Shown here piece by piece: positions 61,480-62,551 of a DNA stretch of 64,000 nt (within the stretch, counting starts at the first letter, position 1; each line of letters begins with the position of its first letter). The notes beneath the pieces are model-generated. The model was not told where the DNA came from and ran no database searches. It saw only the letters and a program-made list of their open reading frames with translations. This DNA is from Gammaproteobacteria bacterium (GTDB taxonomy: Bacteria > Pseudomonadota > Gammaproteobacteria > JAJFKG01): assembly GCA_965116795.1 (NCBI GenBank), contig OZ220716.1, positions 1,290,503-1,354,502 on the forward strand, given 5' to 3'. A program made the position numbers and the translations under genes.

Positions 61480-61999
61480 TTCTTCAGCTTTTCCTGACAT
61501 GTTAAAACTTGTCAGAGACAGAGCCGACAGGAAACATGAGCTAGCAATCTTGGACAGGCAGCTTGAAGCACAACGTGAAGGCCATGTTCAGCGTTTAGAA
61601 GAAATTGAAGTGCAAGCTGACATGGCTGAAAGCAAAGCACTGTATCAACATGCCAGTCTTCCAAGTCATGTAAAGTGGGTCGAAGCCTTGCGTGCATCGG
61701 TAAGGCCGGTAATAACGTATGCGTTCTTTGCTTTGTTTGTCTTTGTTAAAGTGATGGCATTAATTGCATTACTGCAACAAGGGTTCACAATAGTAGACAG
61801 TGTGTTAACGATTTGGGACGATGAAACGCAAGCGTTATTTGCGGCAGTAATGGCCTTCTGGTTCGGGCAGCGCAGCGTCACAAAATCCCGTCAATTGCAT
61901 CAGTGATGACTGCTTAAATAAATAGGCATAAATGACTGGCTATGTTTTCGATAGTAAGCGTTAATGGTGATAAGAAAACATTTACTGGAGATTAAAGCC

Positions 62000-62311
62000 A
62001 TGAACACAAACGCAAACACTTGCCACGTTAACATCACTATGATTGAAAATCCTGATGATAATTGCACACAAAGCGAAGTAAACGCCCTTATTACAGTATT
62101 TCGAGATGCACTCACCTGCATTGTTCCTACTCGCGCTAGCGAAGTGTGGATAAACCTAGGTGATTCTACCACAACACCCAAAAACGTTAAGGACTTTCAA
62201 GTGCGTTTAGGACGCTGTGAGCGGTTTGCCGGAAAACCGGAAAAATGGGCAGGGGAATTTACTACCGCCAGCAAGAAAGTTACCTTGATTGCACGAATAG
62301 ATAATCACTAA
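62000..62311 (+). CDS. Cassette X, additional ~100-aa paralog absent from the first module
   Basis: ACTGGAG RBS; NCTQSEVNALITVFRDAL and W.GEF align with A/B/C; own motif at 61898-61965 and hairpin at 62330-62369. Confidence 0.75.
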   Translation: MNTNANTCHVNITMIENPDDNCTQSEVNALITVFRDALTCIVPTRASEVWINLGDSTTTPKNVKDFQVRLGRCERFAGKPEKWAGEFTTASKKVTLIARIDNH

Positions 62312-62329
62312 TTGTCTCTCCTTGAGTTT

Positions 62330-62369
62330 GGCAACAGGCGCCTAATGTTGGCGTTTGTTGCCCTTTTTT
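62330..62369 (+). terminator. Intrinsic terminator-like hairpin of cassette X
   Basis: GGCAACAGGCGCC-TAATGTT-GGCGTTTGTTGCC followed by a T-run. Confidence 0.75.
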
Positions 62370-62551
62370 ATTGGGTTAAACCCAATCTCCCCTACTCCAT
62401 CACCAAGCCCTGTAAAGCCGATTATTCCAGCCACATTAATGGTCTGCACATCAGCGATAACTGCTCGAATAAATAGGCATAATTGACTGGCTATGTCTTC
62501 GATAGTGAGCGTTAATTACAACGTAACGTTAACTTAACTGGAGAAAAAATC

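Follow-up and report, generated by a model that had tools for sequence, protein, structure and literature searches.

Two prophage regions in a 64,000-nucleotide stretch of a gammaproteobacterial genome (the window; the source genome is closed, 2.45 Mb) each carry a row of small genes between a holin-like gene and a phage lysozyme gene, and the second of them (copy 2) has one gene, X, at its holin-proximal end that the first (copy 1) lacks. This raises the question of how such a unit comes and goes. The original prediction was that X is a fourth paralog bounded by direct repeats, and that units are inserted or excised by recombination at the repeat, either homologous or site-specific, with polarised, integron-like addition as a possibility. 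The reading that we favor, with a probability of about 0.7, is that the locus is an array of units, each consisting of a likely promoter, a gene for a protein of about 100 amino acids and a predicted terminator, and that homologous or microhomology recombination among the many related resident prophages adds and removes units. The features are listed in Table 1.

Table 1. Features of the two arrays and their borders, in window positions.
Feature	Position	Strand	Remarks
Holin-like membrane protein gene, copy 2	60881..61906	+	Split by an IS200-type element; putative holin
IS200-type element inside the copy 2 holin-like gene	about 60916-61480		Two further genomic copies, both 100% identical
X leader repeat, 68 nt	61898..61965	+	Left box CATCAG-N5-ACTGC and promoter-like core
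Promoter-like core of X leader, TGGCTA-17 nt-GTTAAT	61937..61965	+	Putative promoter
Gene X, 103 aa, unnamed family of about 100 aa	62000..62311	+	dN/dS 0.03-0.08
Terminator-like hairpin and T-run after X	62330..62362	+	
A leader repeat	62449..62516	+	61/68 identical to X leader
Gene A, 103 aa paralog	62552..62863	+	
Terminator-like hairpin after A	62881..62911	+	
B leader	62997..63085	+	An internal insertion adds about 20 nt
Gene B, 110 aa acidic paralog	63117..63449	+	Net charge -15
Terminator-like hairpin after B	63464..63496	+	
C leader	63583..63650	+	42-45/69 identical to X and A leaders
Gene C, 99 aa paralog	63686..63985	+	Stop codon overlaps lysozyme start
Phage lysozyme start, copy 2	63982..64000, extends beyond the window	+	Stops prematurely, after residue 108
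Holin-like gene of copy 1	6721..7170	+	Other allele
Copy 1 array	7182..8690	+	Opens with a partial leader (positions 25-68); A 7261-7572, leader 7707, B 7826-8158, leader 8288, C 8391-8690
Phage lysozyme of copy 1	8687..9133	+	PF00959

Alignment of the leaders confirmed the near-identical repeats on either side of X. The X and A leaders, 551 nt apart, agree at 61 of 68 positions, the best off-diagonal 68-nt match in 30 shuffles of the region being 38, and identity falls sharply to background at both edges. The final codons of the copy 2 holin-like gene reach into the start of the X leader. Each leader has two boxes 17 nt apart, followed by GGAG or AAGGA and then ATG. Hairpins with T-runs lie 3′ of X, A and B, about 85-90 nt ahead of the next leader, and C reads straight into lysozyme with no terminator between them; the count of terminators alone is not above chance (4 versus 2.8). 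A search of Rfam gave no match within window positions 60000-64000.

X proved to be a fourth paralog, as had been proposed. An alignment of 13 outside homologues matched it with an hhalign probability of 97.5, and a profile of 115 outside rows, themselves originally recovered with a profile that included X, found it at an E value of 5e-14, with reversed controls not among the matches. X and A share 26% identity over 76 residues, and the five paralogs with two or more copies are 19-48% identical to each other. The upstream gene is a putative holin by its position and hydrophobic segments; PHROGs returned only a family of unknown function.

Copy 1 does run from the holin-like gene directly into cassette A. 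However, its holin-like gene is a different allele (72% nucleotide identity to that of copy 2) and its first leader retains only positions 25-68, and copy 1 is therefore not copy 2 minus X. The matching comparators for copy 2 are the prophages at genome positions 1.247 and 2.108 Mb. Copy 2 itself is decayed: besides the IS200-type element in the holin-like gene and the premature stop in lysozyme, a DDE transposase (window 56576-58128) interrupts its tail-tip gene. Between the tail-tip gene and a DUF6127 gene, copy 2 but not copy 1 contains a HicA/HicB toxin-antitoxin pair (window 59894-60521, minus strand), and DNA similar to this stretch is present at 1.096 Mb.

Sixteen lysis loci were located in the genome by tblastn, 14 of them related and two of a divergent subtype that holds unrelated inserts and no family gene. 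Thirteen of the 14 contain a total of 29 family genes of six types (X, A, B, C, D and E), each prophage having between zero and four diverged versions of the small gene. Seven intact arrangements were observed: no family gene (1.152 Mb), C alone (1.396, 1.478 and 1.541 Mb), AC (2.108 Mb), ABC (1.096, 1.247, 1.297 [copy 1] and 1.422 Mb), XABC (1.352 Mb, copy 2), XD (2.218 Mb) and XDE (2.254 Mb). Two further arrays are cut by insertion sequences, leaving BC at 1.191 Mb and D at 2.168 Mb. That the array gains or loses units is thus borne out. Gene order is not permuted in any of the 14 loci, no family gene was found in this genome outside prophage lysis loci, and C abuts or overlaps the lysozyme start in all ten loci that carry it. 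The two divergent prophages have large unrelated ORFs in the same interval (397, 236 and 651 aa at L138:708-1901 [-] and at L139:902-1612 and 1626-3581 [-]; no Pfam hit), which makes the stretch between holin-like gene and lysozyme a general cargo hotspot.

Contigs from public sequencing runs match the copy 2 holin-X junction without a difference and also contain two empty-allele junctions; as these runs may contain the source sample, the agreement serves as an assembly check only. One contig (run X7) shows the copy 1 type of order, holin-A-B-C-lysozyme. Viral and metagenome contigs yielded no close relatives of four queries (D, C, P0017 and P0021), and no complete array could therefore be read from a second organism.

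The breakpoints between arrangements were read from these loci. The prophages at 1.247 and 2.108 Mb agree with copy 2 as far as the X leader reaches, and the agreement resumes where the A leader begins, which places the switch inside the 68 nt. A single type of X tail precedes A, D or C in different copies. After this tail, A-type sequence sets in at about position 18 of the A leader, giving a breakpoint at leader position 17 or earlier. At 1.478 and 1.541 Mb, in contrast, the C leaders are D-like in the middle, giving an X-tail/C breakpoint at about 25-63; the two crossovers therefore differ. Other leader breakpoints lie at position 25 (the copy 1 allele) and about 68 (X versus A). At four loci the first 14-23 nt of the leader are fused to the last codons of X at a microhomology of 9/10 (10 nt), so that the promoter core and X are gone and the X terminator is kept; we read this junction as one old deletion. 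At 1.396 Mb the switch is inside a terminator, and at 2.108 Mb it is at terminators with about 85 unrelated bases between them. This last stretch, which runs from the A terminator to the next terminator at 2.1096 Mb of the genome (G000), is unlike the X-E tails and is possibly the remnant of a seventh unit type. The expectation that breakpoints fall in the repeat accordingly holds for several of them (holin/X versus holin/A; X tail to A, D and C), and others lie outside it, at terminators (two loci) and at the 3′ end of X (four loci), an outcome that the original prediction had itself named as refuting.

Recombination is not confined to the array. Across 11 copies of the tail-tip gene, neighboring informative sites were less incompatible (0.54) than in 500 of 500 shuffles, showing that the prophages are mosaic outside the array too, and the genome encodes RecA. 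Among copies, dS was 0.35-0.63 for X compared with 0.20 for A and 0.14 for B. Ordinary recombination is likely to add and drop units without an integron-like enzyme. The direction of change cannot be read from the holin-like gene, because its copies are uniformly 84-90% alike, and deletion of X from an XABC array would yield the 1.247 Mb form equally well.

The same junctions could also reflect decay, a long ancestral array having lost units as the prophages degrade, with no ongoing gain. The microhomology deletion of promoter core and X at four loci would suit this explanation, as would the three arrays cut by insertion sequences, the genes with stops or frameshifts and the defects of copy 2. 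We nevertheless consider it very improbable. A single ancestral order poorly explains an X tail followed by A, D or C, and the A-B-C block is 90-91% identical over five copies against a background of 85-89%, suggesting recent spread. Moreover, dN/dS was 0.03-0.18 for all five paralogs with at least two copies, and these paralogs are under purifying selection. Gain must have occurred at some point, since relatives outside this genome are single-copy.

That recombination among resident prophages exchanges the units is compatible with the following course. The ancestral state would have been one leader and one gene at the site, as in alphaproteobacterial prophages, and paralogs would then have accumulated in tandem between the holin-like gene and lysozyme. 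The repeated leaders and terminators could have provided landing points for exchange between related prophages. In the simplest case, XABC in copy 2 would have arisen by one crossover within the first 17 or so nt of the leader (the shared left box), between an array of the X-D type and one of the A-B-C type.

A different explanation of the repeat is that the leader is a site-specific recombination site at which a dedicated recombinase moves cassettes, adding them next to the holin as an integron does. The sharp edges of the X/A repeat and the several junctions inside the leader would be expected of such a site, the leader contains short inverted repeats (CAG-N6-CTG and ATAG-N14-CTAT), and the genome holds 11 serine integrases and four tyrosine recombinases. 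However, the breakpoints are scattered, order is fixed in the 14 loci, X is not the youngest unit, every family gene of the genome lies within a prophage lysis locus, and the motif also precedes single-copy genes that have no array. The best score for IntI (TIGR02249) in the genome was 22.6 bits against a cut-off of 265; a CALIN would not require IntI. The R″/R′ boxes of attC (GTTRRRY and its inverse) were absent from 20 of 20 leaders on either strand. Among eight whole intergenic stretches, a single one contains the two boxes in the right order; they lie at the terminator with about 35 nt between them, and the sibling copy has not kept the pair. DNA folding of 20 leaders on both strands gave z values of -2.4 to +1.4 with predicted structures that differ between types, showing no hairpin common to the leaders; a conserved RNA or single-stranded DNA structure of the leader was rejected on these grounds.

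In 11 copies prophage homology stops at the last codons of a small gene beside the serine integrase, a position that is likely to be the left att site. In the window this region (26127-28368, minus strand) comprises a DUF2924 gene, a large serine recombinase and the small recombinase-associated gene. Comparison of the leader with the 11 integrase-side ends gave a best match of 11 nt (E 0.045), which is not meaningful, and a motif built from the left ends did not find a right-hand att core. Contigs of eight public runs, in which rare forms are dropped, were inspected for mini-circles. A single back-joint appeared (run X4, from 62480 to 61931), with 32 letters on its short side and beginning exactly at the first base of the leader; it matches the chromosomal leader at 2.254 Mb and was rejected as a circle. 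Overall, we consider a dedicated recombinase hardly credible; of the original prediction, neither site-specific recombination at the repeat nor polarised, integron-like addition is supported.

To what, then, does the leader correspond? In 98 loci from outside this genome, no tandem family genes were found: 91 are single copies, four are single genes split by a frameshift and three are partial matches. In one subgroup of 50 loci, many of them named as Alphaproteobacteria, a holin-like gene is directly upstream in 43, and holin-like gene, family gene and lysozyme (at most 1.7 kb downstream) are syntenic in 41. Since the single-copy gene occupies the position of the array, the ancestral state was likely one leader and one gene. 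Upstream regions were collected from 90 of 94 loci (four were omitted as partial or off-register), of which 73 are unique, and 71 of the 73 share a two-box motif with an invariant 29-nt span. TTGATA and TTGGCT are examples of its first box, GTTACT and GTTCAT of its second, and the span ends 25-42 nt upstream of the start codon. Two boxes kept at a fixed distance by a spacer of free sequence have the geometry of a promoter.

The genome was scored with a matrix made from the outside loci only. Out of 4.9 million positions, the X leader took rank 15 and each of the 28 leaders scored was among the top 5,569, the weak scorers being B-type leaders and one C leader (ranks 2,474-5,569). The motif of this genome is one base longer than the outside motif and its second box is non-canonical; a sigma-70 consensus scan found no promoter at any leader (4 sites versus 5.3 in shuffles). 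As the same two-box motif with fixed spacing stands before single-copy outside genes, the leader repeat is most likely, judged from sequence, the inherited promoter of the family. None of the outside upstream regions read showed the left box CATCAG-N5-ACTGC, a possible operator.

The proximity to lysozyme suggests another role for this element, namely a phage late promoter or activator site for lysozyme expression, with the small proteins tuning lysis. Consistent with this, C adjoins lysozyme in all ten of its loci, the family gene lies immediately next to lysozyme in 24 of the 50 outside subgroup loci, and the second box is non-canonical. Nevertheless, in a GC-rich outside group the gene and motif are downstream of lysozyme (35 of 44) or, at L069, beside an integrase; reverse-strand genes intervene before lysozyme in 17 of the 41 syntenic loci; hairpins separate X, A, B and E from lysozyme; and the prophage at 1.152 Mb does without the whole array. 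A lysis-tuning role is thus rather improbable, and we retain the family's own promoter as the most likely identity of the leader. In outside loci a convergent gene often follows the family gene, and in three of five scanned it was of a defence-like type (PDC-S11/DUF4268, GajB or a SMODS [CBASS-type] cyclase). In 38 of the 44 GC-rich loci this neighbor is a protein of about 316 aa with no Pfam hit, presumably HrgA-like. The defence-like neighbors may only share a hotspot.

No search by sequence or structure assigned a function to the proteins themselves. Neither Pfam nor PHROGs assigned a meaningful family to the paralogs or to 123 aligned members, PADLOC returned no family for the six members tested, and the ESM Atlas gave no usable match for two of two queries. 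A profile search recovered 141 proteins at E ≤0.001 among 50%-identity representatives, including a few spurious long repeat proteins. One outside protein of 209 aa (P0026) consists of two fused family domains. In the tree, three outside proteins join the cluster of A, B, C and D (99/99), and X and E group in another place (95/87); a single origin of all six types was not rejected (p-AU 0.115, 36 of 122 rows). The paralogs have no hydrophobic segment, the maximum 19-aa hydropathy being 1.09. The structure was modeled with a pLDDT of 94 as one helix on a five-stranded sheet. Foldseek found nothing at E 0.001 or better in PDB or BFVD, and a wide structure search gave best Z scores of 6.3-6.4, to pseudopilins. 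The likeness to a minor pseudopilin (GspI-like) was taken as a common fold arrangement. The Z of 6.3 (rmsd 3.3, 74 aligned) is tied with unrelated folds, and the hydrophobic N-terminal helix expected of such a relative was not seen.

Diversified, selected paralogs, a defence hotspot and many sibling prophages in one cell together suggest a role in conflict. It is possible, at somewhat less than even odds, that the family proteins are soluble binders expressed from the prophage for phage-phage or phage-defence conflict, with one target per paralog. A more far-reaching proposal, which we regard as unlikely, is that the family, undescribed and widespread and with a conserved, non-canonical promoter of its own, is the marker of a defence hotspot in the lysis region. 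In this host, full of sibling prophages, it would have turned into a modular specificity array, with a separate rival phage or defence system blocked by each paralog and with the promoter as the point of swapping, possibly via small circles. The literature searched, mostly open-access, contained no account of this array or family.

The closest known counterpart is the promoter-early stem-loop (PeSL) of the T4-type phages RB49 and phi1, where a repeated intergenic promoter and stem-loop flank small orphan genes; in the part of that report used here, gene gain and loss map to recombination between elements and no dedicated recombinase is identified (PMC2839356). As far as that part allows comparison, our array likewise has a repeated element with promoter geometry, Shine-Dalgarno sequence and start codon before small genes, stem-loop terminators in the intergenic stretches, and gain and loss breakpoints in the elements. 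It differs in belonging to the lysis region of a temperate phage, in a cargo made up entirely of paralogs of one family, in a leader that appears to be inherited from the single-copy ancestor of that family, in having no sigma-70 consensus match and in a hairpin that is apart from the promoter core. The array works like a PeSL without being filed as one, because its leaders do not match the sigma-70 consensus and the one candidate circle joint is accounted for by a chromosomal copy.

Three other systems were compared. As in prophage morons, self-contained promoter-gene-terminator units stand between conserved phage genes (PMC2839356, PMC3594210); variable presence and promoter-like and terminator-like signals were found here, C having no terminator. 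Unlike morons, the units are paralogs that stand in tandem and share the orientation of the lysis genes, flank homology appears to drive exchange where the moron model needs none, and in one subgroup the single-copy gene belongs almost invariably to the lysis region. The T4 internal proteins Ip1-3 are target-specific inhibitors of GmrSD that are homologous only in their packaging leader (PMC12373910). They offer a functional analogy only, that of a variable locus of several small proteins, each of which could block a different target; the proteins described here are homologous over their full length. Integrons and CALINs, known from phages (PMC9892861), resemble the array in having co-oriented single-ORF units of about 550-590 bp separated by repeats. 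In contrast to them, the array shows no IntI, no GTTRRRY/inverse core in the repeat and no conserved hairpin, and its repeat lies before the gene and is promoter-like.

With 14 natural array variants in one closed genome, the breakpoints of gain and loss are directly readable. Shuffling of the PeSL type, known from lytic T4-type phages, is extended by this array to a temperate phage, with a repeat that is traceable to what is most likely an inherited promoter. A further outcome is the definition of an unannotated family that comprises about 140 clusters at 50% identity and six diverged paralogs and for which the structure model is confident. If every paralog does counter a phage or defence system of its own, the array would model, in compact form, an arms race between prophages that share a host.

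Several other elements were noted in the window. A reverse-transcriptase-like ORF of 532 aa (31150-32748, minus strand) occurs together with long inverted repeats between 29.4 and 32.9 kb (29423-32886), and the stretch may represent copies of a group II intron, which it resembles. A four-gene cluster (39477-46296, minus strand) includes a 1172-aa SMC-like protein and, by resemblance, is a candidate Wadjet (jetABCD) system. Two large paralogous proteins are encoded at 10681-18089 and 47306-54952, the second with WD40, Sel1 and weak ankyrin matches, and repeats of the WD40 type follow the lysozyme region in several prophage copies. These proteins and repeats suggest a host-associated bacterium and possibly phage-borne effectors.
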